This document shows positions 1 through 45,659 of a DNA stretch of 64,000 bases, piece after piece (position 1 is the stretch's first letter; every line of letters starts with the position of its first letter). Origin of the DNA: Ascidiella aspersa (taxonomy: Eukaryota); assembly GCA_963924565.1 (NCBI GenBank), contig OZ004607.1, positions 6,944,001-7,008,000 of the forward strand. The letters run 5' to 3'. The notes under the pieces were generated by a model that saw only the letters and a list, made by a program, of their open reading frames with translations, ran no database searches and was not told where the DNA came from. The translations under genes and the position numbers were made by a program.

Positions 1-3000
1 GTGGATGGTAGCACGTGCGTCCAATCGTTTATTAACGCTTCGACCAAAGTAAACACAACAACTATGATCTGCGCTGGTTACGAATCGGGTGGCAAGGATG
101 CATGTCAGGGTGAGCATACTGGATTATTGATTTTCGACTTTTGATTTCGTTTTACGACAGACGTCAACTAGATCAGTGTTTCTTAATCAGGTGAATGGTT
201 CACCCCAGGATAAATAACATTTTTGCAGGGGTGAATACGGGTAAATGGATGGTAGCTTGCAAAACAACCGAGGTCATTTTGTGCTGTTATATATAGACGA
301 TATAGTTTTATCATATCATGAGACAAGGGGGCAATGACATCTGGAGATAGATGCTGGGGGTGAACAAAACTAAAAAAAATTTAAGAAGCACTGGACTAGA
401 ACAAGACACGGAGTGCTTTGTATAATGTTGTAAAACGAGCCACAATGGCTCAGTAGCCTTTGTCAGTATGAAATTTCTTGCACTTAAATTTAATCAAGGG
501 CGAAAACAACTTTGAATCTTTTTTGCTCGTAGTTTCGTCAAGCATGACTCAGGCTTGAGTCTCTCAACGGAATTTGTTGGATTTGTTGGATTGAGTTTAG
601 GCAAAAGGTTTTATGTCGTTTTGTCTACAGCATTACTATAGAATCTTTCCTCAAAATAGCGAAATATGTAACTTTATGTTTGAGGCTTGCAAATTTGATA
701 ACTTAGAATAAATTTAATATCCATATTTTGGCTTATACTTTGAAATACTTCAGACCTCGTGCCTTTCAAAATGTTCATTTGTTATAGCTAACTTTGTTCC
801 AACTCTCTCACGACCGAAGTGTACAGGTTAAACAGTCGACCAGCCGAGAACTGCCAGGTTTGCCTCAGGTGACGAAGACTTTATTTCGTATAGGCGACTC
901 GGGTGGTCCGCTGGTTTGCCAAAGATGCGAAAACTGTGACTGGTACGTGGCAGGAGTAATCTCGTTTGGCCAGGGCTGCGGCGTCGCCGGATATTACGGA
1001 GTCTACACCAATATTAACTATTTCGAGGACTGGATCAAGGATACGATTGCCAACCTAGCTCCGAAGAAATATGCCACCTGTACAAGAGCAAGTAAGTGTC
1101 AGCGACGTACAGTCGTTGTTGTCACGTCTATACGCTGACGTTATGCGAACCTAGCTTGTACTTACACTTGTTCTTGCAATTCGCAAGAAGTCGACTAATT
1201 TAGGAAAGGCTCAAAAGGCGCTTTATTTCTTTTTTTTAAGGTGCTACAATCAGAGTTTTACGAGTTTTTGGTTGGGTTTCACCTTTAACTCCAAAAAAAT
1301 ATTTCTATAATTTTGAACGAAATAGCACTAGTATAACCATCGTCTCACTTGTTTATTGGCAAATCGTTGCACTACCCTTGACTCTTAAAATTTGTATTAA
1401 GGCAAAGTTTCTCCAAAACAAAATGCACTAGTCAAGTTGTAAACCTGGTGTAGTATAGCTGGTCTTTCATTGCTTATTTTAAGCTCAGTTGGCACGGCAA
1501 ATGTTTTTCGCGTTTCATCCTTTTCACAAGATTAAATGAGTTTAAAAGCGTTTAGGATTCGGAAATTTAACCATACAGTTTTCACAAGTTCAGGTGCACC
1601 GTCGATGGTTACACCGCCCATTATATACATTTGATGGTTACATCGCCAAATATATAGAACTTGTTACATCACCAATATTATACATGTATCGTTTAATTCT
1701 TCTTTTGCTAAAATATAATAACAATTGGAAGAACACAGCAATTTACACCTTTAATCGCCCAAAGGAAGACTTGCCCATCTAAGTGTCCACTTTTCGTTGC
1801 AGGTTGGTCAGACTGGGGCGACTACACAGCCTGTTCAAAGACCTGCAACTCGGGTACCCAGTCGAGAGTTCGTCACTGCCAAGGAGGAATCGTCGGCAGT
1901 GTCGGGTGCATCGGCGCCGATTTGGAAACCCGGGAATGCAACGTCAACTCCTGTGACGCTAGTAAGTGTGACTTTCTATCATAGGGTATAATTGTTAACT
2001 CTGATCATATCCACTATTGTGCCCTATAAACGTTTAAATGTGTAAACTCGAACGATTAATTATGAGCAATAACTCAACGAAAAACAAAAACATATAGGCC
2101 GTAAGCAATTGTTAAATTTCTAAAAATTGTCGCAAATAACAACTTCATTACTAAATGTTTTATGAAGACAATGAAATTCAACCCAAGTTATTTGACTCTA
2201 TGACATTTCTCTACCTGCTTTAACTCGGAGGTGGTAAAGATTCCTGTTATTCAAGGATTTTTCTCATTTCTTATCTTGACATCTTTGATTCGAGGTAAAG
2301 CTACCTTGTTCATTACTCACGCAAACCGGTCATTCACAAATACCAAGTTAGTGTCAAGCAAGTCTTTTCTATCCAAGTCAATCTCCAGTCCAAGTTATTG
2401 CTATAGCAAGTCGATTTTAGTTCAATCATTTAAATCTTAGTTAAATGTTTAGTCTAAATAAATTGATGACCGTATGGCCTGAAGTATGGTTGTTTCTCGA
2501 CTCGTTCCCTTCTGAGCCTGCATAGCTCAGTTGGTAGAGCGACGGTCCCTGCTTGACCGGAGGTCGTGAGTTCGAACCTCACTGCAGGCTAGTTGTTTTT
2601 TCTATTCTGCCCTGCTTGCATCATTGATCGACAGATTCGGTGAGTCTGCAATGGCTTTCGGTATACCTTATGGCCTTTAACATTATTTCACAGAGCCACT
2701 ACAAAAACCAAAAAACTGCAAGCTATATTAAAAAAAAATAAAATCAATTGCACAAATTCGCAACATTTATAATGTGTTAAAACACTTAATTTTAATCCAA
2801 GTCGTTTGTCAGATTGACCCAAGTCAAGTCACATTATTTGTCTTACAGACGTAGGTCAAGTCAATTCGGTTTATCCAAAAGACGTAGGTCAAGTCAAGTC
2901 CTTTAAAAACAAAGACTTAATTACACAGCCATGATAACACTGCAAAGCTTTGTCAGCCTTGACAGCATCCAACAATAACATTTACACGACGTTAAGATGA

Positions 3001-6000
3001 AAGACAACAAAAGAAAGTCAACAATTGGTTAAAGGGTAATTGTTTTAATCCATGTATTTTGCAGCTTGGACTGAGTGGAGCAATTGGACGCAATGCTCGC
3101 AGACCTGCGGTGGAAGCAGTAGAAGTAGGAGCAGGTCGTGCCAGGGAGATGGAACTTGCGATGGCCTATCTTCGGAGAGCGCGGTATGTACTTGAAATCA
3201 CACTTAGCTCTGATTTTTGCTTTCTCATTGCGGTGCATAGTCCTTGATCGAGTGACAAATTAGGCCTAGTGTAAAGTACAAGGGCCTGCACTTGGTGATG
3301 ATAAGTGGATAGCTTTATGCTGTTGTCTCATACAGTTAACATAAAGATCATGCTTGTCTGCAGAAATAAACAACATTGACTTCACTAAAACCAAACGCTG
3401 TTTTGTCAATTGTCCGAAATTGAACGAGGTTCATTTAAAAAATGTATGACAAAGGATCGCAGACTACTTTGAAGTTCCATGCGCAATTTAGTTGTATTAA
3501 GAGATTTAAACAGTTTGGAAAAGTTGCGTCGCTTACTATGACTATATTAAAGCAAACTGGGTACAAAAGAGCAACAAACTAATCGACGGTATTGAAGGTT
3601 GACTTCGACTGGCATTCAATACACCTCAGTACACGCACGGATGTTAAACGTGCGGTTAAGGACCAATATATAGTAAAATTTAAGCGCAATTAAGTGATAC
3701 AGCGTGAAGTGTGCAGCTGACAATAACCACCATGGCGGCGCGAGTTTTTCTCGTGTGAAAATCGAAACCAAACCTCTGCTTTCGTTTGACGCCGTACAGA
3801 GCTGCGGACCGGAACGTTGTCCTTCCTGGACACTGTGGAATGCATGGAGCGCTTGCGCGGTCACCTGCGCTGGAAGCACAAGCAAGCGGTCCAGAACGTG
3901 CAAATACGGCAAGCCTGGCGACATTGGGTGCCACGTCGGCACATTCGAAGAAATCAAGCCTTGTAACACAAGTGAGTTTGGAGAAACTGGTTTGTTGGTA
4001 ATATCGCCCAGCTGCTGACTAAGAATTTCAAGACTGATTTAGACTTGCAAATTGTCACCCGCCTGTGGCGCTAACCAGCCGTATACGTGTTGTTGGTTTT
4101 GTTATGAAAGAGTGCAGACAAGCCTTTAAAATTTGTAGTTTATATCTAAACCGATTTTCTTATTATTAGGCCATACGATAGTGCAGTTTACACTAAAAAG
4201 ATTTTTCAACTCGTGTTTTCAATCGAAACAACAAGAAAGAAGAACCGTTTTTACTGTTTGTCAGTCAATGTAGTGTTAAACACTTTTCGTTGTGCCTCGA
4301 CTATCTTTCGACAATGGATGCATCGCCGATTAAACTAAAACAAATAACTTCTATTTGTGATTTTATACGTTTTCCATGCAAACAGCGTTGTTAACCAACT
4401 CCTTAAGATTCGCCTATACAGTAAAAAATGAGGTGGATCCGTGGTAACCGGCCCTCGTTGATAGCTGTTGGTAGTTGTTTTATGTGTTTTTTCAGTGACT
4501 ACGGCAGCGTTTCTCAACCGGTGCGCCGCAAGTAATAGTAAAAAAACATATCGAAATAAGTAAATTAATCGGAATAAGACTTTAATGGACAAAATAACGT
4601 TTTTAGTCTCAAAGGCTGGAAGTCCCTTTAAAGATATGCAACTATAAAACCCATGTAATAAAAAATGCAGGCAATTCAAGAGAAATATCGGTAAACCTCA
4701 AAAACTTCGCGCTCGCTTCGCTCGTAAGGTGCGCCGCCACGTTTTCATACGTCTCTAGGTGCGCCCCAAGTATAAAAGGTTAAGAAACACTGGACTTACG
4801 GTGACACGATTGTAAGGTTTTATTATTATTTTCAAGGGAGCCGTGTTCAGCCTGGCATCTTGGGGTACCATCTAGGGTTACATAGTACTGTTGTCTACAT
4901 TTTAAGTTTATAGACAATTTTTTTTATTGACCCAGTTTTGTCCGTTGGGGGGAGGGCAACTTGCTCCCCTCTGCAATTTTAAAATGCGATTGAGCTATTA
5001 TTATTGGTTTTACGTTTTAGTATTGTTATCAGTTTTAATAAGTTACTAATGGAATAGTATTCATATGTATATCCATTTCTACCGAAATAAAATCGTATAT
5101 ACGTATTCATATCACAGATACTAAAGTTAAGTTATGTGTATATATTCATATTGCCCCTACCCACTTGTTGTTATTTTGCATCTTGTAATCGTAATCTGTT
5201 CTTCTGCCTCCAGAACCCTGTCCAGTCTGGGGTCCTTGGTCCGATTGGACAAATTGCCCGGAAACATGCGGAAGCCCGGACCAGTTTTCATTGCGGACTT
5301 GCCAGCACGGAAACGTCGGACAGGTCGGCTGCCAGGGCCTGGTCAGTAGGAAGAGGAAGTGTGCCACAATCAGCTGCGTTGAAAGTAAGTCTACCTGCTG
5401 TGTGGTAACTTGCATGTCAGATTTTGTCATATACATAATAGCACTTTCTATAAATCAAGTTCGAATCTCTTATTTTTGGTCTCATCTACAATCGTTCAAA
5501 CAACGTCAGAGTTTCGCCTACTGCAAAAATACAGTTTCCTATTTTTTTATGTTTCATGATATATTAGTAATACTTTTTTTTTTCTGATTGAATGGTTTGA
5601 GGCGTAGGATGCATGGGCCTAAGACTTCCCTAATTGGCAGTTTGCGGTTCAACTGCTAGGCGACTTACCTACAAATATTTTAGAATGTTAATGTTACCAC
5701 TTAAAATAGCTAGAAATGTTGTCATTTGATATCAATTAGCGGTTAAGTTACAATTTTTCCTTAAATGGGTCAAATGTTTGGAAAACATAATTGCGATAAG
5801 GCTCGATCATTTGACAGCTTAAAAACTTAAAATCGGACTTTGGTAACCTGTGCTTTGTGTACTATGCTCGTATGATCGAGTTAACTAAGCTGCATGTCGT
5901 TGTGATTCAGATCAATGGTCAGAATGGAGCGTTTGCACCAAGACTTGCAACAGCGGGACGCGAACTAGGAGTAAAGATGGCGTTACTCAGACTCGGGTAA

Positions 6001-9000
6001 GATGATTTTTTTTTCTTTCGCATTTCTGGCGTGTCGATTTTTTAAGTTTTAAAAAAATAAAGCAAGCGATTTAAAAAATCTAAAGCACCAATCAGTTAAA
6101 TGCTGAAGCCAATCATCAAACTCAATTGCAAATAACTGTGTTTCTTTTAAGACTAAATGCGAAATGCAAGGTTTTATTAAAACTGTTGTGTTTTTTTTAA
6201 TTCGTTCTAAAACTTAAAAAAATATAAAAATTACTTCTAAAACTAAAAAAGTGAAAATGATGTTCCATTTGAAAGTATTGTCAATTTAACCCAAACAACT
6301 CTTAATCAGGGATTTTAAAACTGTGGTCTGTAGATACACACGGGGTCCATGCATAGGCGTAGCCAGGGGGGCCTGAGGGGCCATGGCCCACCCAAAATTT
6401 ACAAATATTTTACTCTTAATAATTTGTTGTGTAGCATTTATAAGCAGTACCACAAAAGTCGATCACAGGCATGCCACACCTTATTGTCATGCATTGTTAC
6501 GTCACAAACGATGTTGTAAATATAACGTTTGCTGTACAATAATGTAGTTTTACTACTTCATTCAGTTTTAGCTCTTTGAGTGGTCTTTGTGTATTACGTT
6601 AACTCTCAGTTAGTTTCTGCTCGAAACGTGTTGCTAGCATTGTTATTTGTGTTCGTTACGGCAGTTAATACAATGAAAAGCTAAACAAAAAATTCCAACT
6701 TTTTGGCCTCCCCCAAATTTTCGGCTGGCTACGCCACTGGGTCAATGGAATACTTTTAAGGGGTCCAAAAATCTTAGTGTGTTATACAAAGTGGAACATT
6801 TTGAAACCACTTTGCCGTGTTCTCCTTGAATGTTAGACTATTCTTTCATATTTGTTTGACAGAATACAGCAGGCTTCTTAGGTCTAGTTCTTTATGACGT
6901 CACATCTGAACAATTTCGTGTCGACCCTGGTCCGCGCGGACCAAATGTATTTTTTTAGGGGTTCGCGTCAAACAAAACTTTAAGAACTCTTGCCCTAAAC
7001 TTTTTTGGTCTGTGGCCAAAATGTCTATTTAATAGCGATTCGTAGCTCACGATGTGCTCTAAATTTGGACATAAACATTTTCTATGAAAATACAAGCCCA
7101 AAACACACAATGAAAAAAAACAGCCCAAAAGACACAATTAAAACAAAGCGCATAATTTCTACAATATAACAAAACAGTAGAATCTGTTCAAATGTCTCTG
7201 TGGCCTATTGAAAATGTCTTGTTTGAGAACCACTGCCCTAAATCAACAAACCAACCGCTCTTGTGCAGAATTGCAGAACCAAAGAGTGTCCGTACTGGGG
7301 CGACTACAGCGACTGGTCCGCTTGCTCGAAAAGTTGCGGGGGCGGCGAACAGAGCAGTAGCAGGAGCTGCATATCGGGAAATGTCGGCCAGGAAGGATGC
7401 CTTGGCAAAACTTCCAGGACTCGCGCATGCAACCTTGGTAGGTTTTCGGTATGATAAAAAATGCTCTCCAATTTATTAAACTGATTGAACGCGGGTTTTT
7501 ATTAATTACATCACTGATTGAGCGGGATGTCGTATCGCTTACGCAACAGTTGCTCATCAAAAATCACAAAACAAAAGCATACAGTACCAAAATACCTTGG
7601 AGAAATAAAAGTTTTTAAGCAGAAAAATCCTCATTAGAGAATCGTTAAAACTAAAATTCATTTGTTTATACGCGTTCTTTAGCTGAAATACCAATACACT
7701 AGGCTTCAAGGAGGCCTTGGGCCATAATACAACGTGTATGACCTTTACGCTTTAAAAGCAAATGTCTGTATGCTGAAAAAGTCGAATTAATTTAAAGACT
7801 TTATTGTAAACGGTTCGATCATTTCGTAGGCTTGTGTCCTGTCTGGCAATCGTGGGGATCATGGTCGAGCTGCTCCAAGACTTGCGGGGAAGGAACGCGC
7901 AGTCAGGAAAGGGGCTGTGATAACGGAAATGTTGGCCAGGATAGTTGCATCGGTCCTGTAAAGAAAACCGAGGACTGCAATTTAGGTGACGGCCTGAACA
8001 TTCTGTTGCCTCGGAGCGTCACCATACCGCAAAGTTTTGTTTAAAGGCCCGTTTACACTACAGCTGCACTGAGCTGTGCTGGGCGTGAAAATCGCTCCAA
8101 AACGTAACGTTTTTCTATAGCTGCACTGGGCTGCGTTTGGCAAAGCGTGAAACGCTCGCCACAATAGAATTTAAATGCAAATTACGCTTTGCTCAGCTCA
8201 GTGCAGCTGTAGTGTAAACGGGCCTTAAATCAGAAAACACAGATTTTACGTCTTGGATTTACCTTGGAATAACTTATGACTTAAACTTGAACATTGTTTA
8301 TTCGAAGTGACTCGACTTAGATTTCGGTCGTTTTCAAATTATTATCAATTTTTTGTATTTTTAAATTGCCTTGGTATTTCTAAATTGCCAAGTATTTTTA
8401 AATTGCCTTGTAAACAACACCGAAAAACAGTTGATGCACCGAACGTCTAAAACGGAAGGCAAGTATGTATTTTACTAAGTAATTACAAAAAGGCGGTTTT
8501 CAGATAGAGCTTGACCCGCCAACACAAGCAGAATAGAGACATAGATTTCACTAAGTTTGTTGAAAACCTTCCGTTGCTTCATTTCTAATGACATATGTGC
8601 GCAATCTTTTGTGCAGGAAAATGCCCGTCGTGGAAAAACTGGAGTGCCTGGGGCAGTTGTTCAGTGACTTGCGATGGCGGTAAGCAAATCTCGACGAGAA
8701 CGTGCCTAGACGGAACTGTGGGACAGAAGGGATGCCAGGGATCGACTTCGCGAGAACAAGTCTGCTCCACCGACGACTGTCCAGGTCAGCCGGCTTGCAT
8801 TTTGTTGTTTGCAGTTATTCTTCGTGTGTTTAAATCCTTGTATCACTGTAACTATAAGAGCGTATATTTTGTTATGACAGGGGGCACTGCATGGTACGTT
8901 CGTCGTTCGTAGTTACATTTCGGTACGCACATTGCTCCGTACAACTCGCAGATTTGCTTAAGTCATTGACAACCTCGACTCTATTGTTTCTTATACTAGA

Positions 9001-12000
9001 AGTTAACCATCTTTAGAATATAGGGGATAATTTTTTCAGAAATGTTTATGAATTTCAATAGAGTGAAAAAGTTGAATGTAGCCTGTAAAGATTATTACGT
9101 GTGTAAGTTTAACAATACAACTAACCGGGGGTATTGGTATGTAAGCAATAAAGACACCGCTAAAATGGATTTATAATATTTTTCTCTGAGCAGTACGATT
9201 GAATGTGAAAAAAGGAAATTGGATTCTTGCTGTGCGGCCACCTCTTAACTAGGAGACGTGTAGTTCATAAGTTGTACAAGGTCGCCCTAGGCCCATATCA
9301 TTTAAACTCAGTATCTCAGCATTTATTCGCGAGCAGAAATCGTAGAAACCTTAATCGCATAAAGAATAACTTTCTCTCTAGCGACAACTATAGCCACTGT
9401 GTTTTTTGATGTGCAAAAGTTTACTCCACTATAACAGATGAAATAAATTAAAATTTAATAAAAATACTAACAGCAATAAGCTAATTCTTGATCTTGAGTT
9501 TCCTTTCTTTGCTTTACTTTTTAGATTTATTAATTTGGCCATTGATTTTACAACATTTTCAAAGGGGGTCACGGTGTAAAATAAAGCTTGAGAACCCCTG
9601 TGCTAAAACGAAACAAATAAAGGCTTAATTGACATCATTTTTTACACTGACTTCTATATCGAACTGTTTGATAGCGAAACGCAGAACACAGCATCAGTCT
9701 CTAACACACCGACGTATATTCCTTGTTCAGTTTTCACTGCGTGGAGCGAATGGTCAGGCTGCAGCGTTACGTGCAGCAGCGGGACTCAAACAAGGACCAG
9801 GTCTTGTCCCCAGCCTGGGCTCTGTCCCGCCGACATCCACATACTTGTAACCTCGCAGCAGCAAGCGTGCAGCGCTGGATTTTGCCCTTGGGACAATTGG
9901 GGTGCCTATGGAGCGTGCTCCGTCACCTGTGGAACGGGAACCCAAACCAGGACAAGGTGAGGTTTGTTTTTGTTGCCTCTGTCGTATTCAGACGGGTGGT
10001 GTTGTTTATTTCGTTGCATCGAAAAAAAAAATATCAAAACCTTTCAGAGCCGTTACACTTAACAGCTGAATAAGCCTTAACAAGTGGTGCATTCACAGGG
10101 GCTTAGCCAGCTGTAGGGTTTATCCAGCTATTGAAATATATAGATATAACACCTACTATGTGAAATAGATATAACACCTACTATAGGGTATGGAGTACCG
10201 AAGACATCGTATAAGAGACAGTACCCTATGCTAACTGGTGGTATCGGCAGTGGTCCAATACTACAGATAAATCGACGCCCAGACCCTGCCAAAAATTTGT
10301 CGGTTTTGGAGGTCGCTTTTCAACGAATGCAGAGTTTTTGACTTTAAAATATCAATTTTTACAGTAGTAAACTAAACTTCCTAACGCAAATCGTATCAGT
10401 AGATTGAAATTGCTTTTCTGGTGTAAATGAAGTTACAAACCGACGTTTCGGCAGCAGGTACCAGCTGACCTGAACTTCGTTAACACCAGAAGAGCGATTT
10501 CTATATCTACTTATAAGTTGCCTCGTGGAACAAATTCTATTGTTTAGTACAGTGCTTTCCAACCGTTTTCATTTCGCAACCCACTTTTAATAGAATTACA
10601 ACCTACATCTTTACTACTGGCGTACCTCTACTGAAATAGTTAATGCGAAACAACACATCTAATTGTTACGTATTTGTGATATTGTTGCATAATTCTTACG
10701 GTAAGGGTAATGCAATAATTGCACGGTCTAATAGAAAACTGTACCATTGAAATATGCTCGGCGACCAACATGAAATAGCTCCGCCACCCACTGGTTGGGA
10801 AGCACTGGTTAAGTATGTCGCTAAATGGTATGCTCGGAACTCGAAAGGTCGTAAATTCTGTCAGCGCACGGTCGTGCTAAACTGGGTTGCAAGCCTCGAT
10901 GACGAGCAAGATGTTAATCCCTGTATTCTTAATCCTACAGAGTTTGCAGCGCTGGGGTAGGAAAGTGCGAGGGCAACAACGAAGAACAGCAAGATTGCAC
11001 GCAAGCTGCCTGTTCGCCCGGCGACTCTTGTGACAGTAAAGTCGACTCCGTTGGCGTTCCATGTGCAACCTACGTCCAAAGTGGTTACTGTACCACCACG
11101 TACCAGGCATACATGCAGACAAATTGCGCCAAAGCCTGCTGCTTGGGTCAAAGTACGTGCCGATATATTTCTACATATCATACGTTAGTCCGCGACATAC
11201 TTTTACATTAAAGAATCAATTAGTGGTTTCTGCTCCTCTTTTGTACGCCTAAGTCAGGGGTGTCCAACACGCGGCACGCGACCTAATAAAAAATAGCACG
11301 CAAACCCATATGTGTGTGTAAATTTTAACATTAAGTAAATTTACATCTTATTTCGATCGGTTTACAATAATCTTATTCCGACACTTTTAGGTATTTTCCC
11401 GCAGTATAGACCTTAATATGGATTATTATGTCATTGGTCGTAATACTGTTGATTTATAGATTTTATTTCTCCTTAGAGTTTAGCTATTGTTGATTTATAG
11501 GTAGTTTAGTGTGTTCCCTTTAAAACGGCGACCGCACGACTATTTATTTGTTCGCACAGCTTTTTTCACAATGTCAGGGATGGGCAATTATTTTTGACCT
11601 GTGCAAGGTAAAAATAGGATCTGAAATTCACGCAATGTGACGTCATACTATGACGCTATAACACCACTAAGCTAAATAACCTTATTACTTTGGAAGTTGT
11701 GCGCAAATGTACAACCGAAGTCGATTTGAAGAGGACAGGGCATCAGCGCGAAGCGCAAAAAAAATCGCACGGCGATTTCATTTAAAAAGTAAACCTTAAT
11801 TTAGATTTAGAGTGAGACGCGACGCATTTAGCACAGCTTATGTAGATTCGGAAATATGTACATTCCTTGATATGTTGGAATTAATTACGTGGCTAAGCGT
11901 TAAACAGCTTAAGGTTAAAATACGTGAAACAATCGTTGCGAGAAGCAACATATTGCCACTTTTTGCGTTTGCTCAGTTTAATATTCGTTAACTTTTTGAT

Positions 12001-12304
12001 TGACTAACATAATTCATTTGGTTAACCGATGTATCCATAGAAGGTTTAACCAATATCTAAGTTTACATAAAGGGAAAAAAATGGTTTGGCATCCCCTGTC
12101 TTTCATTCTAATTAAACTTACAAACAATTGAAGTTGTATAGCACAACGTTTGACAATTAACCGTCACTCCTGTGTTTTTATTTTGCAGCACAACCGCAAT
12201 GCACGGACTTTTGGCCGACAACCTACTGTGCATCTCCCTTTCTATGTGGCAACCCGAACCTGAAACAGTTTTGCAAAAAAACTTGTTCTTTATGTACTGA
12301 ATAA
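1..12304 (+). CDS. Modular trypsin-like serine protease (S1A) with 10 TSP1 repeats and 2 C-terminal ShK domains; 5'-partial (gene A, predicted active)
   Basis: Manually spliced GT-AG exons: 1-109, 894-1091, 1803-1961, 3065-3183, 3800-3971, 5214-5384, 5911-5996, 7269-7437, 7830-7985, 8617-8784, 9731-9956, 10941-11152, 12189-12304 (TAA). Total 2061 nt with all phases consistent. Motifs: MICAGYESGGKDACQ/GDSGGP (Asp189, Ser195), WxxWxxCSxTC TSP1 repeats, ShK ends CAKACC and CKKTCSLC. The His57 and Asp102 exons lie upstream of the window. Confidence 0.92.
174..393. mobile_element. hAT-type MITE
   Basis: TIR CAGTGTTTCTTAA / TTAAGAAGCACTG; imperfect TSD AACTAGAT/GACTAGAA. Confidence 0.65.
2463..2668 (+). 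mobile_element. tRNA-derived repeat (SINE-like head, short imperfect terminal inverted repeats), copy 1
   Basis: tRNA-like cloverleaf at 2516-2590 (GCCTGCA/TGCAGGC stem, A box TAGCTCAGTTGG, B box GTTCGAACC) plus an ~75-nt tail shared with the copy at 20351-20499. Confidence 0.75.
4505..4792. mobile_element. hAT-type MITE
   Basis: CAGCGTTTCTCAACC ... GGTTAAGAAACACTG; related to 55064-55295. Confidence 0.62.
6307..6992. mobile_element. hAT-type MITE (GGGGTCCATG family) with a nested MITE at 6352-6739
   Basis: Same family as 26270-26609 and 53949-54295. The nested element has TIRs GGCGTAGCCAG / CTGGCTACGCC and splits the host GGGGTCCATG motif. Confidence 0.6.
8045..8225. mobile_element. PIF/Harbinger-type MITE
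   Basis: Perfect 32-bp TIR AGGCCCGTTTACACTACAGCTGCACTGAGCTG; TAA on both flanks. Confidence 0.82.
10550..10807. mobile_element. hAT-type MITE
   Basis: CAGTGCTTTCCAACC / GGTTGGGAAGCACTG; TSD GTTTAGTA/GTTAAGTA. Confidence 0.72.
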
Positions 12305-12353
12305 TATCTGAGGGTAAGAGAATTGGAAGTTTAACGCACGTCCAGCTCGAATT

Positions 12354-12359
12354 AATAAA
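12354..12359 (+). terminator. Polyadenylation signal (AATAAA) of gene A
   Basis: AATAAA 50 nt after the stop codon at 12304. Confidence 0.55.
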
Positions 12360-14099: not shown

Positions 14100-14241
14100 C
14101 AGTATTACTTCTAAGAAAATTTTCCACTGCGCAAATCTTTTTTTCTAGTGAAAGATTTTTTAATGTTTAGTTTGATAACAATATAAGTGCGCAAAACGCA
14201 AATTTTGCGCAGTTGCGCACCTTGGCTTAGAGGGAACACTG
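14100..14241. mobile_element. hAT-type MITE
   Basis: CAGTATTACTTCTA / TAGAGGGAACACTG; perfect TSD CCCCTAGG. Confidence 0.75.
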
Positions 14242-15786: not shown

Positions 15787-16464
15787 TGCAGAACGACTTT
15801 TCGAATTACTTCGAGGATTTTCAGGTTGTTTAGCGCCACCTTACGATACACACTTTTTATGGACTAGGTTGCCCTCACACTGGTCGTTATGTTTTCTCTA
15901 CCTATAAATAGACCTCACCGAGACTTACAGTAGTATCTAACGGTATCTACTGCTCGGCTTAAAGGCAAGAGATTTTAACATGTACTGAAACCACCTCAAT
16001 TTTGCGGATTAGCTAAAAATTACGTTGTTAACGGCTAAAAATAACGTGGCTAAATATTCACCTAATAACAACATTTATGTTTTCTTCTATAAACAGGATT
16101 CAGAAATCGATTTATTTTTATTCAGACGAGGAAATGAGTGTTTTGCCCTTGTAATCTGTTTAGTTCCTAATGAAAGTTGCACGGTTTCAAAATCCGACAG
16201 ACTCCAAGTTGAGATCATCGTCAGTAAATTAAATCAAGCCGAAATAGAAGCGGGCTGGGAAAGTCGCGCTTTCTGTGACGTCAGACAATAAATTGTGCCT
16301 TAGGCGTGCGAGCGTTTGTGCCTCTATTTTGGGTTGCTTTTGATCGGGCTGTTTTACGGCACGAGCCAGCTTCGAGACTAATAATGCAAGTGCTGTTTTG
16401 ATCTCTCGCAGAAACGTAAAGCGTATAAAACTTTAAAACGAAACTGTGTAGGTTCGCTGAAAAG

Positions 16465-25400: not shown

Positions 25401-28400
25401 TGCTCCTTAGTACAACAATACACTGTTGCCTGTCAATGTCAGTGACTTTTTTCCGCAGAGTTTAACCCACTCCAGGCATCGTTTCCGATCGTGGAATCGT
25501 CGACGTGCAGCTACGGCCGGGCCGATCAGGGTTCTAAGATTTGCGGCGGGCTTCAAAACAGGACTGGAGATGACACATGCCAAAGTAAGAATAAGCTGCC
25601 ACCAGCTTTGCTTCAGGCGCACAATTTTCACACAAAAACGAACTTGCCGCGAAATGTTGGGAAGCGTGAAAGCACTTAGCTAAGATGCTTTTGTCGTTTT
25701 CTGACAGGCGATCCGTGAATCATCGGTAATGTTTTTAAATTGGATACATTTTGCTTGCGTTTCAGAATAAGGTTTTGTGGGCAAAGCTAAACAAATTCCA
25801 GAACTTTTCCTGGTATACGTTGCACGAATCTGTAATATAGCTTAATATTGAACTTTAAAGCCAACAAATCGAGTAAATCGACATCATATTGATAAAACGT
25901 GTATCATCGCAGTTAATTCCTCAAAAGCTTTACAATTATTTTCTTCAAAGCTTTCTTAATATTAAACCTCTGAATAGACAAAGTACCAAAAAATGATGTA
26001 TTAACGTTGCATAAGGACAGGCTAATGACCTGATCAGAGATTATATTACAACGAAAATATCCCTGCGTGTACGCCACAAGGACATTGCTGATAATAATAC
26101 TAATGTTTCACCTCAAACAATAAGTGGCCAGCACTAAAAACGCTACACAGGGCAAAAACGAAACACAGCATTTAAGCCTGATTTCCACATATAACCAAAA
26201 CTTTTTATGCTTAGGCGTTTCAGGTCCCATAGAGTTTAACTCCTTATAGCAAGATCTTATTGCTATGGCCAGGGATTCTTAACAGGGTCCGTGAAAATCT
26301 TGGGTTTATCTGCACTAGTTTTAAGGGGTCCATGAAGGCTAAATTGAAATCTGGGTGTAACTTGAAAAATAAAATTAATTTTTTTAAATAAAAAAAAAAA
26401 AAGTAATTTGCTGTCTTCTCCTAAATATACTTATACTTCACTTTAGCTTTACATTTGTTAGACCAAAAACAGCAGGTTTCGTAAGTCTACCTGTTTTATG
26501 ACGTCATGTTCTGACGCCATCTATAGTAATTCCACGCCTACCCTTTTTTACGTGAAAAGAAAAAAAAGTGTTTAAGAAGCCCGCATTAAAAAAAGTTGAA
26601 GAACCTCTGCTTTAGGCTTAAATCGATATATAAATAAATTTGATGCTCTTCGCAGTCGCGCCAGGCGGTCCTCTAGTCTGTCAGCGCTGTTCTAACTGCG
26701 ACTGGTACCTTGCTGGCGTATCCTCGTTCGGCAGAGCCTGCGGTTCCAGCAGCGATCACCAAGCCTACTCAAGCGCCGAGCAAATGGAAAAGTGGATCAA
26801 CGGGGTTATCAGCGTTCCGGGGACCACCAAGTACGCCAGCTGCCAACGGGGAGGTACGAAATAATGGCCATATACAGCAATTTGACTTGTACAACCGCCT
26901 GATTTGTGTCCTCATTTTTCAGTTGTTAACGAGATTCTTTATGAAAACTTTAAGATCTGTAAATGGAGTTTAGCTCACAATTTATAAAGCCATTAGTAAT
27001 CTGGTGATAGTTGAGTTTGAGTAGTTACTTTGGAACTATAGTATTAGTTTATAGAAATAAGGATTGGTTTTGTAAACATGCGCAGAAAAAAAATTGCGCC
27101 TAAATGGTAAGGCCTTTCTACCCCAATAGTTATGTCAGACTTACAGGCGTCATTCCAACATGTTTCTTATATTTTTTGCCGTTAACTTCTTTCAATTGAA
27201 AATGAACTCCAACTTCCAAATTCGTCATTTTGCCACCTTTCAATCCTCACTATACCAACTGTGTGCGTGGCTGCGAATTTCTAACGTCAAGTTTCACTTT
27301 TTCGCGCAGCGTGGACGCCCTGGACCGAATGGAGCGAGTGCTCCGGGCGATGTATCAACGACACCGTGGCGCAGAGCGGCTCGCAGACCCGTCAGCGCGA
27401 ATGCGTTGGTGCTGCTGTGGGCAGCGTTGGCTGCGTGGGATTAGATCGCAATCTGCGGCCCTGCAACTCGTCTTGTCAGAGTAAGTGGCGTTGGGAATGC
27501 AAACCAAACATCGGTTTGCCTCGATGCTTAAGTCGACCGACTTGTTCCTCCTAAAGGCATCACAAAAAATGTTTGTGTTATTTTCTTAACGCAAAGAAGT
27601 GAAGTCGGATTCGTTTCTAGACTGCTAGTTTGCCTATCTCTCATAACTGGGTTCTGCAGCATCTCATTGTTTTTTCAGTGATCACCAACTAACAGTTAGA
27701 CCTACAGGCAAATTACATGCTATGTCCATTGGTAAATGAGACTTTATTGTGGCAAATAAATCATTAAAATGAAACGTATTATAAAATACTTTATTGGGCA
27801 TACAACTCATGCTTTTTAATGTTCACGGGAATACGAATTTACTGATTTTTAAAACAGATTATTTTCATAACCCAAGGAACTGTAGTCGGATTTGTTTTTG
27901 GCTGCTATAGTTGACCAATAGCTCTTCAACTCATAACTGCGTTCTGCAGCTTTACCAGCGGAACGTTTTTTTAGCAATGTGTACGAGCTACGGGCTGGTG
28001 AAAATAGCGAGATAAATACAGCATCTTAATTTTGGTTGTCTTGAGGTTAAGCGCGACTGACACAAACCCTAACTAATTGATACATGTATATTGTCCCAAA
28101 AGTTTTTTGCAAAATACTTAATAATTTAGGCGAATTCTAAGTCATTTAGGCTTCTGGCTTAACGTGGTCTTTCAATTATTTTTTTGTAAAACTGGGTACT
28201 TACCACAATTACTTTTTATTTTACCATTCAATTTCGAGAACTTGACTTGGAATTAACTTGCTACAGCAATGACCTGAATTCGGACTTGACTTAGCAATAG
28301 TTGAAAATGACTTTGATTTAATAATATGTCAAATGACTTGCTTACAACACTAACGCAGGATAGACAGCGTGTAATCTCCATTTTTATTCCTAAACTTTCA

Positions 28401-31400
28401 CAATATAATGCAATATAATATTGGTGTTAGGCCGTTTAAAAAATAGATTAAAAAATAGGTTTACCATCCTGAGTTCAAGTGCCGTAATTTTAGTGTGACC
28501 TTTAGATTTCACAGCTTGGACTCCGTGGGGCGCCTGTAGCGTTCAGTGTGGCGACGGGGTAAGGAACAGAACCCGGGACTGCCCGGGGCCGTGGGCTTGT
28601 GCGGCCGACGACCACGGCACCGAGACCGCCCAACAGGTACCCTGCCGCCTGGGGGACTGTCCCTGGAGCAACTGGGGCGACTTCGAACCTTGCACGGTTA
28701 CTTGTGGAACTGGAACGTCAACTCGAAGGAGGTGAGCGTAAAAGCGTGGTGCGTCGTTTATTTAGTGTAGGCCAGGGGTTTCCAACACGCGACAAATGTG
28801 GCCCGCGACTTTATAAAAAAATGTCACGCAAGCCCCCCCAATTAGTTAATTTGTTATTCAGCCAATTACCAAAAAATGCTAAATTGTTATACAGCCAAGT
28901 ACCATTGTTTATCCAAGTGCCATTTGTATGTTGATTTTTCACTCCACCCTATTGCATAGGCCTAGATTTATAGTTCCGAATTTTTCGTTTTAAAAAATGT
29001 AGGTCTGGATTTTTAAAATGTAGGCCTGCTGGATTTACAATTTACAACTTTGCCTGACTTTCAAAATAATAAATCGTTACCGCAGGTTTTCAGGTCGCAG
29101 TGTTTCTCAACCCATGGGTCGCCAACCCGTTTGATTCGGTTGCTTCTATAAGCAAGATATTTTGGGGCTCTTTTTTGTTTTGCTATTTAGAAAGTAACGC
29201 AAAAAACAAAATAAAAATCTACAAATCCCGCACTCCGCAGCGCATATTATTTGGGTGAAGGTTCGGGTTTGAGTTTGGGTGGGTCAAGCATTTTTATTAA
29301 CAATAAGTATAATAATACTTGACCCACCCAGTCCCAAACTCGAACCCGCTCCTTAACCCAAACAATATGATATGTGTTGCGATATGCGGTATTTATAGAT
29401 TTTTATTTTTCTGCGTTACCTTCTACATATTAAACCGCAATTGAGCCCCAATGTTTTACATATTGGGAAACTTCCAAGCTATGCAAAGAAAGTGGCTCAT
29501 ACTTGAATTTATTGGTCGCTCAAACAGTTCAATGAAGTAGATTGAGTTAGCAATGCCTCGTTTTATTACTTTTAGCAGACAGCAAAAAGGTTGAGAAACA
29601 CCGCTCTTTAGGGTGAGCTTGTCAAATCGTATTTTTCAATAGAAAACTTGACAAAAAAAATACATTTTCAACCTAAAGACCGTATATAGGTAACTGAGCT
29701 TTTCCAAAGATCAAAATTTTTATTTTGGTTGGTATGTTGTGAACATATTATGTTATGTTCGTTATTTTGCCATACCACACAAGTTTAGAGGTTATTTAGG
29801 CTATTATCATACTAATCAACTTATAGTATTATTTATAGCTTTTTATGTGTTTTATTTACTTGATGTTTGGCTTGTTCTGGCATTTTATCAAAATCTTAAT
29901 CTGGCAACCCTGGATAGCATTCACATAATTATATAACTTGGTTGGTGTGAAGAAACAACAAGCAAAAGTCAACTCACCGACTAATACTTAGATGCAGTAA
30001 TGTGCAGTTTCTAAACTTTGGAACGGGAAGAAGTTATGAGATAAAAATTGGCACTTCGGCATGTTGAGTGGGACCCCCTGTTGCAGGCCCATCACTGCTG
30101 CTGTAATGAAGTTAGAACAGGAAACTACGTCCCGCCAGATCTGGCTCGCAGACCTAATTTTTTATCGTCCCTCAAATTTTATTTAAAAAGATAAGGTACA
30201 GTCAAACAGTTGTCGGATACTTAAAATCCCAAACTGAATTTTGAATGAATTATAAACTAAGCGACATTTTATTAAAGCTAACTTCAACAATAATGAAGTT
30301 AATAAATGTTGACACCAATTTTCTATCAGGCCCGCGATCCTTGATTTTTAGAGTTATCCGGCCCGCAAAAGTCAAGCCTTACAGCCATCAATCCCTTTAT
30401 GAAAATAAAAACTTTAGTGACCCCTGTGTTAGGCTTACGGAAACTACAGCAGCGCAACTATAAGCGGTAGTTGATTTATTGACGACTTAAAATGTATTTT
30501 TGTAAGCCTGAGGTAGCCTCCCGTATTTTTGGCACTTTTTGTGCTGTGTTGTAGTGGTGGTCATTTATTTGCAAAGAGCGGATAAAAGCGGTCATGTGAT
30601 TAAACTAACTATCAAAGGTTATCTATTGATATCCTCTGTAAGGCGAAGCAAGATGAACAAACATTTTTCTTAATAGCAGTTTATAGCGTTTGTGCTCTGA
30701 AGTATAGTCTGCAACACGCATAAGCCGGGTGTTCATACGGAACCCATTTACAGTACTATAGGATTCGCTTAATCCCAGGATGCACAACTTGCGGCCGTTG
30801 ATTACTGTATAACTTTTGCAGCCGTGCCCTTTCAGTTGCAGTTTTGCGCACGAGTTCGTAAGAGAACAGCAGGTGTTTTTAAGTTTAATTGTCTTATGGC
30901 GTCAGGTTACGATGCAACTCTAAGACGTATAGTCTCTAAAAAATTCTACTGGCGGCCGTGAAAAAATAAAGACTGTTATTGTGACGACCAATAGCTATTG
31001 AAGTCCTTTTAACCCGGGCAACTCTATTCGCAGGACTTGTAACGCGGGCGTGGGCCAGTGCGTGGGCGTCGACCACTACTCACGGCCGTGCAAAAGGCCT
31101 AGTTGCGGCCCTTGTGGTGGGAAGGTAGACAATGGTGGTACCTGTAAGGACTACGCTAATCTCGGATTTTGTGCCTCTGAACAGGGTGAAGTTGAGGGCC
31201 TTTGCGCCCTGACTTGCTGCGAAAGGACAAGTAAGTTACCTGGCGCAAATGTTTGTTTTGTACTGCCTTTGTAGAATTTAAAAACATCACACAAGTTTTG
31301 GTTAAGGTGTGATTAATCGCAGCCGACGTGATACGCTTAGGCCAGATGGTAACTTGGGGACAATTATGAAAATTGTTTTCGGTTGTTTTAATCATGAGTT

Positions 31401-34400
31401 GATACAGCATTCTTAATCGCAAATGCTTGACGTAGGAATTATGGGCGCAGAACAAAATAACCAGCAACTCTAAGTGGAAGGAGTTCCCTATATAGTTCTC
31501 ACTGACCCATGTTTATAGTTATACCCTAAATTTGTTCTGGCGTGACAAAAAATACAAGTTACTTGTAGTAAAGGTCAAAAAAAAAAATATTAGTCGTAAT
31601 CATTTTTATAATCCCCAAATTATTAGCTTACCCTTATTTACAGTATGCGAACCTACTGAAGTAACTTGTGTCGGGGTTGTCAGCGATGGTCTATTTAAAA
31701 GTTTAAAGCGGCAATATGTACCATATTGTTCCCTCTTTTTCTTCAACGTTTGGCCGAAATATTCATGAAGGGCAAGTACGTTCGACTGAGAATTATAGAT
31801 TCCGATGGACAGTATACGATTTCAACTAAAAGCATTATTAGTGATGTCTTAACTCATCAATAAGTCATTTTTACACAGCAGACTTGGACAATTCAAAAAA
31901 TCATGGGCCAGGCGCTTTTAAACTCTTTCGTCGATGTAAGTAGATTCAAAGTTAAAAAACAAAGGCACAGTGCGCGTTTTAAGGCAAACTAGATGCTGTG
32001 ATAATTACAAGGGCGCAGCTAAACTGTTCGAGAAATAGCCTGTCGCCTGAGTGATAAGCACATCTAACCGTTTTAAAAAAGCACTTATATCACGATGAAT
32101 ACTAAAGTTCAACCCTGATAACCCTAACATAATAAAGTTCAACCTTGTTTTACAGTATTCAGCCAGAAGTATATCCTCTTTTTTTTAAATGAAATAAAAA
32201 AACAGACCTTTTCATTATATTGCCTTTTCGCTTTCGTACGTTCTTTGATAGGTTCATTAACTAACATACTACGAAGAAAACATCACTTTTTACCGTACAC
32301 TGCGCGTGTTTTCTTTCAGTATTCAGCTCGTGGGGCGGTTGGAGCGCATGCGACACAACGTGCGGTCCTGGAAAGCGTTCCCGAAGTAGGTCGTGCCCAG
32401 CGGCGCCGCGCGTACCTTGCCAAGCCGACAGCGGCGGCAGTTCAAGCCTACAAACAGAGCCGTGCAACCTGGAAGCATGCCCTGTCGTTTTCAGCTCTTG
32501 GTCCTCGTGGAGCGACTGTAGTGTGACTTGCGGCGAAGGGGTTAGTAGCAGAACCAGGGTCTGCCCGGAGCCGGGAAGCTGCCAGGCCGACGGACACGGC
32601 GTCGAGACCGCCCAGGAACGGCCCTGCAAACTTAGCTACTGTCCCTGGCGACCGTGGGGCGCTTTTGGCCCCTGCTCTGTCACGTGCGGCAGTGGAAGGA
32701 AAATCAGGAAGAGGTAACGTGTCGTTGGCGTTAAGCAGGATTTTTATCGAGCTGTGTGTCGCGACAAACTAGTGTACTTTCGTAAGACTGTCAACCGTGC
32801 CGCGAAACTTTTTGTAATTTAAAAAAATAGGGTTTTGGATGGATAGTCATTAGTCATGCACGAAGGGAGGTACGGCGCGTAGAACACTATTCATTTGACG
32901 ATTAATAATTTATTAAGACACCTACATCTTGCTTCGTGTACACACTGTACATAAAGGGCGTTTGTAAGTTAGATATTGTTGTTTTGTACAGGAATGTGCC
33001 GCGAATGTTTGGCCTGTTAAGGACACGCGTACATACGTTTATACGATATTCGTGATATTTAGAATATAGTGTTCATTCAGTTCACATTATGTACAATCAA
33101 GTTGTTACATATTGTATGATAACTTTGCCAGCTTGAAATAGACGATTGTTTTGTTATGTATGTGGTTTGGTGTGATTCTTAAGTTTGCCATTCTACTGCA
33201 TTTGCTTTATTGGGAATGCGTGATTGCACTTTTGGTAAAACATGGGTCTGATACACAACATAAAATTAACTTTGAAACAAAAACCAAGAAAATGAACGAT
33301 TTTACATAAAACGATAAACTTTCGGAATTTTTTTAAGGTTTTCAGTGCATTAAGTTTACCAGCATTAGCTGGGTGCGAAGACATTTTGCTTTGCATAATG
33401 CACTTAGTTTGTGCACAAAATGCCATTTGGGAAGATAACGAGCATTATCGTTAAGCGCGTTTAAAAAAAAATTAAACCTAGGAAAACATGGCACAGTTAG
33501 ACAAACACAGATTTACCCGAATGTCAAAGTGTTTTCCTCTTAATGTGGTGTTATTGATGAGCGGTTGTAGACCCTCTTCTTCACCAAAAAAGGAAAGGGT
33601 CTACGTTGTTTTCACATAGTAACAGCATTGGATCAATTACATTAATTCAGTTGAATTACAATTACAATTACTCGCTTAAATGTTTCAATTACAATCACAT
33701 TAAAAAACTATAATTAATTACATTAATTACAATTTTCGGCATTAAAACTTAAATTTTCTCAATATCAATGTATTGAGCTAAAAATTTAGTCAACAATTAG
33801 AATTACACAGAATGAAAATGCTTCAATTACATTACAATTAAATTAAAACCTGTAATTAATTACATCAATTAAAATATTCGGCGTTGAAACTCTTTTTTTT
33901 TTCAATAATCAATGTATCAGCCAAAATTTTAGCAAATTACAATTACACAGAATGAAGATGCCTCAATTACATTGCAATTACGGTACATTGAAACCTGTAA
34001 TGTGAATTAGATCAATTACAAATGTTCCAACTCTGCATAGTAGGCTAAGACAGTTTTGTTTTTGTAAAGGGTGTGCAGTTCCGTAGAGGGAAGTTGTTAC
34101 GGCGATGAAACAAGTGCCGAGCCTTGTTACCACGATTCTAGCTGTTTATGCGCCGGCACACGCGAAGATATCTACACCGAGTACTGTCCGATGTACGCTA
34201 AGTTCGGCTACTGCTGGATTTACAAGTCGTTCATGACCGCCAAGTGCAATCGCACCTGCTGCCTGTATGAAAACAGTAAGTAGGATTTACAAGATTTCGT
34301 AAATTGCGTGAGCTTTTGGTGTTTGTTTGTACTTCGCTGACTCATATGCATAGCACAAAATTCGTGATACCTTGAATTTACGGCTACATTTGTAATTCTC

Positions 34401-35049
34401 GTATAAATTGGTTCAGCATTTGTACGCCTTGTGCGCCTAAGGCTAAGCGATCATCAGTGTTATAATATCTTCGACTTCAACGTGATCTGGGAACATTACC
34501 CATCGTCACTCACTTAATGTTCCTAATTTGAGTTAAATTGCTCGTACAAGACAAATAAAATTGTGTCTTTTCGTACAAAGTGGTGTATTTGCGTACCTGG
34601 GCCTGCAAAAGGATAATGTTCAACAAAAAAAATATGTTTTTTGTCCAAAAACGTTCTAATTGGTCAAATTATCTAGTTAAAACATGTGTTTGCCTGATTT
34701 TACCAATTGGCAATTGAAACAAAACGGCCAAAAGTCAAAATAACACCTATTGCACTAAAGCAATGCGGCTTACGACGGCGACGGCGGCAAAACAACTCAG
34801 CTATTCTCGAGTTCAATTGACTGTTAGGAAAAGCAAAACTAAAAATGAGTTGTGCTAGTCGGTAGCCCGACGCCAAAGTTTAGTAGTTTCAGCATTTTAA
34901 ATTCGTTTTTTCTAGACCTGGACTTTGCCCGGTCAAGTACCTGTGTCGACGAGTGGCCGGAGATTATGTGTGCCTACTTTTCGGTCGACTATTGCAACAC
35001 AGAAAACATGCGGATGTACTGCAAGAATACGTGCAACCATTGCGCTTGA
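16465..35049 (+). CDS. Secreted catalytically inactive serine protease homolog: SP-ShK-EGF-cbEGF-trypsin(dead)-3xTSP1-ShK-3xTSP1-ShK-ShK, 856 aa (gene B)
   Basis: 17 exons: 16465-16520, 16977-17038, 19455-19571, 20143-20256, 20943-21092, 21319-21392, 22285-22367, 23213-23309, 23917-24082, 25459-25584, 26656-26853, 27310-27480, 28506-28731, 31034-31230, 32320-32713, 34070-34275, 34916-35049 (TGA). 2571 nt, open frame. Signal peptide ...LLITIGLLSIISCVDA; CRKTCGLC ShK; DVNEC cbEGF; R-IIEK activation site; SAHC and NDVVLLRL retained; DTCQ-IAPGGP replaces DACQ-GDSGGP. Confidence 0.92.
20351..20499 (+). mobile_element. tRNA-derived repeat, copy 2 (internally deleted, ~22-bp TIRs)
   Basis: TGACCGGAGGTCGTGAGTTCGAACCTCACTGCAG and the tail match 2554-2663. 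Flanked by ATAATAGTACACCGAAAGGCCAT / ATGGCTTTCGGTGTGCTATTGT. Confidence 0.75.
23551..23641. mobile_element. 91-bp hAT-type MITE
   Basis: CAGTGGTTCGCAACC / GGTTGAAAACCACTG; perfect TSD CTCTATAG; the empty site is visible in the adjacent duplicate near 23823. Confidence 0.85.
26270..26609. mobile_element. hAT-type MITE (GGGGTCCATG family)
   Basis: CAGGGATTCTTAA ... TTGAAGAACCTCTG; internal similarity to 53949-54295 in reverse orientation. Confidence 0.6.
28773..30080. mobile_element. Nested MITE stack (outer hAT MITE; inner 29098-29603; innermost foldback 29164-29449)
   Basis: Outer CAGGGGTTTCC / GGGACCCCCTG with TSD GTGTAGGC/TTGCAGGC. Inner CAGTGTTTCTCAACC / GGTTGAGAAACACCG. Innermost long palindrome GGGGCTC...GAGCCCC. 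Confidence 0.62.
33623..34035. mobile_element. MITE with internal (C)AATTAC arrays
   Basis: TSD CATAGTAA/CATAGTAG; ends CAGCATTGGA / TTCCAACTCTG; internal AATTAC repeats with a duplicated unit. Confidence 0.62.
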
Positions 35050-45521: not shown

Positions 45522-45659
45522 CGGTGGTTCTCAAACGCCGGTCCGCATCAACTTTTCTGCCGGCCCGGCAAATATAGTACAAATTTATATGTCAATTGCA
45601 AAAATCAAGATGTTGAAGGCGGCTTGTCCATCAAATTTAGAACTTTTGAGAAACCACTG
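45522..45659. mobile_element. hAT-type MITE nested in an older MITE starting near 45179
   Basis: CGGTGGTTCTCAAA / TTTGAGAAACCACTG; TSD TTTTACAT/TTCTACAT. Confidence 0.68.

Follow-up and report, generated by a model that had tools for sequence, protein, structure and literature searches.

Cofactor action has been shown for some of the clip-domain serine protease homologues of arthropods, which together with the clip-domain serine proteases (cSP and cSPH) are among the described systems closest to the genes reported here. A serine protease homologue is an S1-like sequence that lacks one or more residues of the catalytic triad (PMC1761132), and in the honey bee 13 such homologues, some of them clustered, are found beside 44 active enzymes (PMC1761132). 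ShK domains are found in multidomain enzymes that also contain EGF, thrombospondin and trypsin domains, and an embedded ShK domain can still modulate channels, as in MMP23 (PMC6409789). For the Tuphoxin phenol oxidases of tunicates, the TSP1 repeats are supposed to bind matrix (PMC9395347). We analysed a 64-kb window of Ascidiella aspersa DNA (64,000 nucleotides of contig OZ004607.1; 37% GC, AT-rich animal DNA), in which two adjacent forward-strand genes, A and B, each join a trypsin-type domain to TSP1 repeats and ShK-like domains. Their architecture is that of an ascidian family that is known to databases and apparently unstudied. The definition of this family is what is new here, together, probably, with the repeated loss of catalysis within it, of which B is one case.

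Both gene models are given in window coordinates, with exons placed on genomic DNA alone by splice signals and reading frame. Gene A (1..12304, +) is truncated at its 5′ end by the window edge, and 13 exons coding for 686 amino acids are visible (1-109, 894-1091, 1803-1961, 3065-3183, 3800-3971, 5214-5384, 5911-5996, 7269-7437, 7830-7985, 8617-8784, 9731-9956, 10941-11152 and 12189-12304, all +). Gene B (16465..35049, +) is complete, with 17 exons coding for 856 amino acids (16465-16520, 16977-17038, 19455-19571, 20143-20256, 20943-21092, 21319-21392, 22285-22367, 23213-23309, 23917-24082, 25459-25584, 26656-26853, 27310-27480, 28506-28731, 31034-31230, 32320-32713, 34070-34275 and 34916-35049, all +). 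All 28 introns are of the GT-AG type (12/12 in A and 16/16 in B), and neither frame contains an internal stop. A 198-nt exon of phase 1-1 is common to A (894-1091) and B (26656-26853), as is a 226-nt exon of phase 1-2 (9731-9956 and 28506-28731, respectively). Pfam searches with 22 exon pieces gave Trypsin on five, TSP_1 on seven, ShK on three, an EGF type on one and no match on six, and five further A exons all matched TSP_1. With our own profiles the layout of A was trypsin(part)-TSP1x10-ShKx2 and that of B, after a probable signal peptide, ShK-EGFx2-trypsin-TSP1x3-ShK-TSP1x3-ShKx2. Thus, what the sequence-only reading had described, namely adjacent same-strand paralogs with shared 198-nt and 226-nt exons, a trypsin-TSP1n-ShK layout in both, and GDSGGP in A versus IAPGGP in a B intact over 17 exons, was found again in these data. 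A tblastn search of the window with 25 family proteins gave 1785 high-scoring segment pairs within the modelled exons and 0 outside them, hence no further exon or paralogue of the family was detected in the window.

A first search with the 65-residue catalytic exon of B yielded one family protein, from Styela clava, among 28 candidates. Wider searches retrieved 362 proteins, with the best 120-150 matches of each search listed, so that the family counts are lower bounds. A loop of the CQRCxxCxW type follows the catalytic motif in A, B and at least 30 of the 362 retrieved proteins, and at least 25 of these loop-bearing proteins carry TSP1 repeats after the protease domain; isoforms or near-duplicates are included (P0273/P0274, P0193/P0210 and P0105/P0161). 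Among the matches listed, all members with a species name are ascidian (Ciona intestinalis, C. savignyi, Phallusia mammillata, Clavelina lepadiformis and Styela clava), often with several copies per species. The family order, ShK-EGF-EGF-trypsin-TSP1n-ShK, is followed by B throughout and by A from the protease domain onward. Among the 25 listed TSP1-bearing members, four showed the full ShK-EGF2-trypsin-TSPn-ShK2 order (P0108, P0154, P0159 and P0168) and nine the order ShK-EGF-trypsin-TSP-ShK. Four proteins with the family loop and no TSP1 tail (P0001, P0026, P0037 and P0137) form a clade of their own (99/96); P0001 (Styela LOC120334119) carries a long Thr-rich stalk, and P0137 gave a weak match to a trefoil domain. 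In a Nematostella protein, TSP1 and trypsin come in the opposite order and the CQRCxxCxW loop is absent. The 1.84-billion profile search, whose profile was shaped by a whole Styela protein, was swamped by multi-domain trypsins, and the loop was seen in 8 of the 150 listed matches; sequence searches of the PDB returned generic S1 relatives only.

In the databases the members are hidden under other names, among them 'Putative coagulation serine protease' (Q8T3A0), SCO-spondin-like, hemicentin-like and adt-1-like. By definition, ADAMTS proteins have an M12B metalloprotease domain, SCO-spondin has vWD/LDLa arrays and hemicentin has Ig arrays. Pfam reported only trypsin, TSP1 and EGF types on P0108, P0134 and P0150, and no M12B metalloprotease, vWD/LDLa array or Ig array on the scanned exons of A and B; we therefore rejected an ADAMTS, SCO-spondin or hemicentin identity. 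Vertebrate coagulation proteases carry Gla and/or kringle domains and are orthologous to clotting factors; Pfam found neither domain in B or in the scanned relatives, and this identity was rejected as well on domain content. Ciona is described as having no genuine coagulation orthologues (PMC2527998). No study of the ascidian family was found in the literature, where supplements and most subscription journals lay outside the coverage and a description could exist, and no characterised protein with this architecture was found there either. The architecture, which the sequence-only reading did not recognise from any characterised protein, is therefore without a characterised counterpart in the literature covered, but it already exists in databases as an ascidian family that includes Q8T3A0.

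In B, an N-terminal ShK-like domain and two EGF-like domains (19455..21092, +; Pfam and own profiles) are followed by the protease-like domain (21319..26853, +), with Pfam Trypsin matches on exons 7, 9 and 11. Chymotrypsin numbering was assigned by motif position, and codon coordinates in B were counted from in-frame exon starts. The Arg15-Ile16 site (21348-21353), His57 (22357-22359), Asp102 (23959-23961), Asp189 and Gly216 are retained, while IVGG is changed to IIEK and the substitutions G193I, D194A (26658-26660), S195P (26661-26663) and G226Q (26760-26762) have occurred. In S1 proteases, changes of this type leave no nucleophile, no oxyanion hole and no Ile16-Asp194 switch, and make the S1 pocket more crowded. 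The catalytic motif reads DTCQ-IAPGGP, with its I split by a phase-1 intron; as the Ala-Pro codons (GCG CCA, 26658-26663) lie wholly inside the exon, the loss of Ser195 is independent of splice choice, and as there are several separate changes, a single sequencing error is ruled out as the source of the inactivation. Judged by these residues, the protease-like domain of B is catalytically dead by several separate changes, and B, an S1-like sequence with a lost triad residue (S195P), falls within the definition of a serine protease homologue. The 140s loop of B is about seven residues shorter; a micro-exon in intron 9 that could fill it (9-63 nt, with a pyrimidine tract and a consensus donor) was sought, none passed these filters, and a missing micro-exon was rejected as the cause of the short loop.

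Exons 1-2 of B (16465..17038, +), the least secure part of its model, have no homology support and are defined by splice signals, frame and hydrophobicity. They encode a basic N-region with a hydrophobic stretch after it that begins at residue 19, and probably represent a cleavable signal peptide. In 11/11 relatives checked the hydrophobic stretch begins at residues 3-8, compared to residue 19 in B. Because it begins this late and after a basic region, B might be membrane-anchored and not secreted, in which case the N-terminus could be a signal anchor rather than a cleaved signal. The tail of B (27310..35049, +), TSP1x3-ShK-TSP1x3-ShKx2, contains an internal duplication of a module composed of the 226-nt double-TSP exon and an ShK exon. 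Exon 15 (32320-32713, 394 nt) is an exon of the 226-nt type enlarged by an additional TSP1 repeat, which by eye resembles the first repeat there and suggests an intra-exon duplication; the extra 168 nt are of the same size as A exon 10, perhaps by coincidence.

The 198-nt catalytic exon of A (894..1091, +) contains Asp194 (896-898), Ser195 (899-901), the CQRCxxCxW loop and intact Ser214, Gly216 and Gly226, and Asp189 is encoded in exon 1 (1-109). Its motif is DACQ-GDSGGP, with the G split by a phase-1 intron, and the alignment shows that Asp189, Gly193, Asp194, Ser195, Ser214, Gly216 and Gly226 are all retained, including the three residues (Asp189, Gly216 and Gly226) that give S1A trypsin-like proteases their Arg/Lys specificity. 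His57 and Asp102 are present in 27 of the 27 Ser195-bearing database family members among the matches listed, from which we infer that A is catalytically active, and A is likely an active trypsin-like protease. Downstream lie the TSP1 array with 10 repeats and the first ShK-like domain (1803..11152, +; own profile and Pfam), and a last exon (12189..12304, +) with the terminal ShK-like domain, recognised by our own profile without a Pfam match, and the stop codon; an AATAAA is found 3′ of it, at 12354. Exon 7 of A (5911-5996, 86 nt) encodes a shortened TSP1 repeat without the middle cysteine pair, and a similar short repeat was seen by eye in P0108.

We considered the columns that are near-invariant over 20 active relatives. 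B keeps 51 of these 67 columns, including 13/13 cysteines, compared to 22% identity at the other columns, and the near-invariant positions that it lost are concentrated at the activation and catalytic sites. Over 320 codons in six exon pairs of A and B, synonymous divergence (dS) is saturated (proportion of synonymous differences, pS, 0.76), the nonsynonymous proportion (pN) is 0.40 and the nonsynonymous divergence (dN) 0.56, with a bootstrap upper limit of 0.32 for dN/dS; for the internal duplicate of B (138 codons) dN/dS is 0.39 (0.16-0.63). GC content at four-fold sites is 56% in B (219/388) and 54% in A (165/305), compared to 35-37% in introns, and in simulations of neutral drift the B frame stayed stop-free in 31/300, 3/300 and 0/300 cases at 0.02, 0.05 and 0.1 substitutions/site, respectively. 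We conclude from these patterns that B appears firmly to be under purifying selection, with dN/dS of about 0.4 or lower, although the ratios were obtained by a simple script of our own near saturation, and on paralogues and not orthologues, which detracts from them. Since B is under purifying selection, it is a retained pseudoenzyme and not a pseudogene, and the earlier claim of a genuine non-catalytic homologue that does not evolve neutrally is upheld. That B is a decaying pseudogene or an artefact of gene modelling could be read from its long branch (1.17 vs 0.41 for A), but 17 exons with 16/16 GT-AG introns and no stop in 856 codons, the 13/13 invariant cysteines, a dN/dS well below 1, the coding-type GC at four-fold sites and the quick loss of the frame in the neutral simulation make this highly improbable. 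B thus has the properties of an intact, selectively maintained coding gene.

In a tree of 626 columns and 24 proteins, A and B were sisters (100/97), and the B branch was about 3-fold longer than that of A. This tree left out three of the 25 TSP-bearing database proteins (P0161, P0221 and P0274) and included the other 22; of the protease-domain trees, one dropped 3 of 36 rows and the one with 259 columns dropped 12 of 36 (TSP-less members, outgroups and near-duplicates). The best match of B exons 11, 12, 14 and 17 is an A exon, and for B exon 13 and the 3′ part of exon 15 the two best matches are each other and A exon 11. Several observations speak against a simple sister relationship. B exon 16 is closest to database proteins and not to A, the grouping of A and B comes mainly from the C-terminal region, with the N-terminal/protease region alone leaving both unplaced, and the protease-only trees are unresolved, one of them pairing B weakly (87/83) with Ciona LOC100175024. 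As the support is mainly C-terminal, gene conversion between the neighbours could inflate the signal. Ciona LOC100175024 is also the best BLAST match of the B protease domain (41%), and B as its orthologue was rejected on the concatenated tree (p-AU 0.004). Taken together, we regard A and B, as far as trees and exon matches can tell, as sister products of a local tandem duplication. Ciona LOC100175024 (P0210) and LOC100185217 (P0273/P0274) are likewise sister genes, with an ShK domain within the TSP1 array as in B, which suggests a tail rearrangement parallel to that of B.

Among 30 listed relatives, Ser195 is lost in three: Clavelina LOC143446071 (P0220), a Styela 'SCO-spondin-like' protein (P0207) and the Logan protein P0219. 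All three have also lost Asp194 and keep 13/13 invariant cysteines and a TSP1 tail. Their substitutions (GEI, VNT and GER) differ from the IAP of B, and each of them is without the activation motif and, besides, without Asp189 or His57/Asp102, all of which B largely keeps. P0220 and P0219 group together (100/100), while P0207 falls with active Styela-type 'adt-1-like' proteins (99/99). Placing all four dead members in one clade gave a p-AU of 0.021 on the 626 columns and of 0.094, not rejected, on the protease domain alone (259 columns), so that a single origin is probably rejected, and the trees point to probably three independent inactivations within the family. The predicted fold of P0220, taken as a stand-in and describing P0220 and not B, had a mean pLDDT of 69.9 with low confidence at 163-177 and 298-303, and a Foldseek search with this model returned trypsin-fold proteases (best 1ekb, E 1e-17).

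In a rival explanation B would serve A, or some other active member, as cofactor or scaffold: once cleaved at Arg-Ile, it would bind enzyme or substrate and be needed for efficient proteolysis, as are arthropod clip-domain homologues. In its favour, B keeps Arg15-Ile16 and all domain cysteines (the three other dead members have no activation motif), dead members seemingly arose at least three times, as the p-AU of 0.021 against one clade indicates, and protease cascades are established to include inactive homologues (PMC1761132). In addition, the consecutive gene ids of an active and a dead Clavelina member, LOC143446070 and LOC143446071, suggest a second active/dead neighbour pair. This pair is deduced from ids and not from DNA, however, and the trees do not place dead LOC143446071 as sister to its neighbour; on the protease domain alone, a common origin of all four dead members is not rejected; and, as A and B are sister duplicates, their adjacency follows from tandem duplication and needs no functional link. 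Neighbouring proteases and homologues are a common genomic pattern, and active/dead paralogue neighbours are an ordinary outcome of S1 tandem duplication. Moreover, the 4.2 kb between the A stop and the B start and a TATA-like box at 15903 fit separate promoters. A complex prediction with Clavelina stand-ins, active P0176 (60-422) and dead P0220 (58-414), scored 0.00 twice with alignments unused and controls unfolded, and speaks neither for nor against binding. We consider this explanation doubtful, and the proposal of the sequence-only reading that B serves A as cofactor, scaffold or decoy gained support from no result.

The explanation that we favour, with somewhat better than even confidence, is that A is a matrix-tethered secreted protease and B a non-catalytic binding protein largely independent of A. 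A would be secreted as a zymogen, activated by an upstream trypsin-like enzyme that cleaves its Arg-Ile site, and anchored through its TSP1 array to the extracellular matrix or the cell surface, where it would cleave local substrates. The tethering is proposed by analogy with the tunicate Tast astacins and Tuphoxin phenol oxidases (PMC11673157, PMC9265791 and PMC9395347). B would bind the same kind of surface as A, its protease-like domain remaining zymogen-like even if cut at the retained Arg-Ile site, and would act through its outer surfaces and TSP1/ShK tail and not by trapping substrate in the cleft. It would most likely have its own role in adhesion or matrix organisation, with an influence on A that extends at most to shared docking sites. 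Points against this explanation are that the N-terminal part of A, including His57, Asp102 and the activation site, lies upstream of base 1, outside the window; that A and B are known here from genomic sequence alone; that the matrix-binding role of the TSP1 arrays would hold by analogy only; and the limits on the sister grouping and on dN/dS given above.

Alternatively, B could be a competitive brake or decoy, which occupies the docking sites of A through the shared TSP1/ShK tail, soaks up the activator of A at Arg-Ile, or binds inhibitors. The tail exons of B are closest to those of A, and among the features that B has retained are a cleavable activation site, His57, Asp102, Asp189 and Gly216. 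From what is established for S1 proteases, however, the substitutions G226Q and G193I are expected to block the S1 pocket and abolish the oxyanion hole, which argues against trapping of substrate or canonical inhibitors, and the B tail is rearranged relative to that of A; we view a decoy as quite unlikely. A broader proposal would be an ascidian extracellular proteolytic system of TSP1-anchored trypsin-like enzymes, whose dead tandem duplicates were recruited, repeatedly and independently, to act as cofactors. Chordates would in this way have converged on the clip-SP/SPH design of arthropods, with a system for tunic remodelling, wound sealing or allorejection in animals without a true clotting cascade. 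We think this unlikely to hold as a whole.

The window contains several other features. A tRNA-Ala(TGC)-like sequence lies in A intron 3 (2515-2591, +), and the stretch 2548-2662 recurs in B intron 4 (20375-20489) as a 116-bp copy of 93% identity; the element is probably a tRNA-derived short repeat element. In B intron 15 there is a tandem repeat (33688-34027) of about 141 bp in 2.3 copies. A good splice acceptor at 16411/16412 (+), 53 nt 5′ of the B ATG, may mark an intron of the 5′ untranslated region or a trans-splice site; trans-splicing occurs in ascidians. Converging on B is a protein kinase gene (about 38700-46450, -), with Pfam Pkinase matches on 41827-41997 and 41411-41560, which we take to resemble MAP3K14/MAP3K8-type kinases. 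Hydrophobic exons at 55795-58905 and 62350-62765 (+) have the look of a seven-transmembrane receptor, the first with an 81% identical duplicate; Pfam gave no match on any of the four single exons searched.

Defining the family, which is found in all five named ascidian species retrieved and hidden under SCO-spondin-like, hemicentin-like, adt-1-like and coagulation protease names, corrects these annotations and provides candidates for proteolysis in tunic, mucus and wounds in the closest invertebrate relatives of vertebrates. The probably repeated inactivation of members that keep the fold offers a usable case of pseudoenzymes arising from tandem duplicates and, should the dead members turn out to be cofactors, chordates would possess a convergent protease cascade.

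Of the known proteins, Ciona intestinalis Q8T3A0 (P0168; ShK-EGF2-trypsin-TSP11-ShK2) has the domain order and CQRCxxCxW loop of the A/B family, and A is 37-39% identical to it and to P0159 over about 770 aligned positions. Further ascidian relatives are C. savignyi H2ZIH0, H2ZII5 and H2ZII6, Ciona XP_018669341, LOC100175024 and LOC100185217, Phallusia A0A6F9DUA4, Clavelina LOC143446070 and LOC143461331, and the Styela 'hemicentin-1-like' and 'adt-1-like' proteins. By sequence Q8T3A0 and these relatives are catalytically intact, with 5 to 20 TSP1 repeats, and their names derive from domain resemblance. An expressed sequence tag from Botryllus allorejection had a Ciona 'coagulation serine protease' as its best match (E 1e-10; PMC2527998), which we do not equate with Q8T3A0, and the one link to immunity that was found, through this tag, is weak.

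As with A and B, the family of arthropod cSPs and cSPHs includes active enzymes as well as homologues with a deficient triad, and its genes are sometimes clustered (PMC1761132). The clip domain, however, is absent from the N-terminal exons of B, on which Pfam and our own profiles found ShK, EGF-type or no domains, and A and B have instead a C-terminal TSP1/ShK tail; membership of B in the clip-domain group was therefore rejected. The Tast astacins are, like A and B, tunicate secreted or surface enzymes with TSP1 repeats and tandem gene clusters (PMC11673157), and the Tuphoxin phenol oxidases have TSP1 repeats and, as in B, two EGF domains (PMC9395347). Tast is an M12A metalloprotease and Tuphoxin a tyrosinase, in contrast to the trypsin domain of A and B, and Tasts differ further in being type II membrane proteins, with 2-3 TSP1 repeats each. 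ShK toxins are free small peptides with channel-blocking activity. The ShK domains of A and B are embedded modules of large proteins, and calling them 'channel-toxin-like', as was done at first, adds little given that ShK is common in non-toxin multidomain enzymes (PMC6409789). In azurocidin a trypsin fold was reused for binding after the loss of catalysis, as would be the case in B; its accessory domains are unrelated. Haptoglobin, HGF and protein Z are further non-catalytic S1 homologues in vertebrates; HGF keeps an Asp194-type switch and its cleavage turns on binding, while B has no Asp194. Among these systems, A and B represent a lineage-specific variant, of modest interest, of the familiar pattern of a protease and its non-catalytic homologue.

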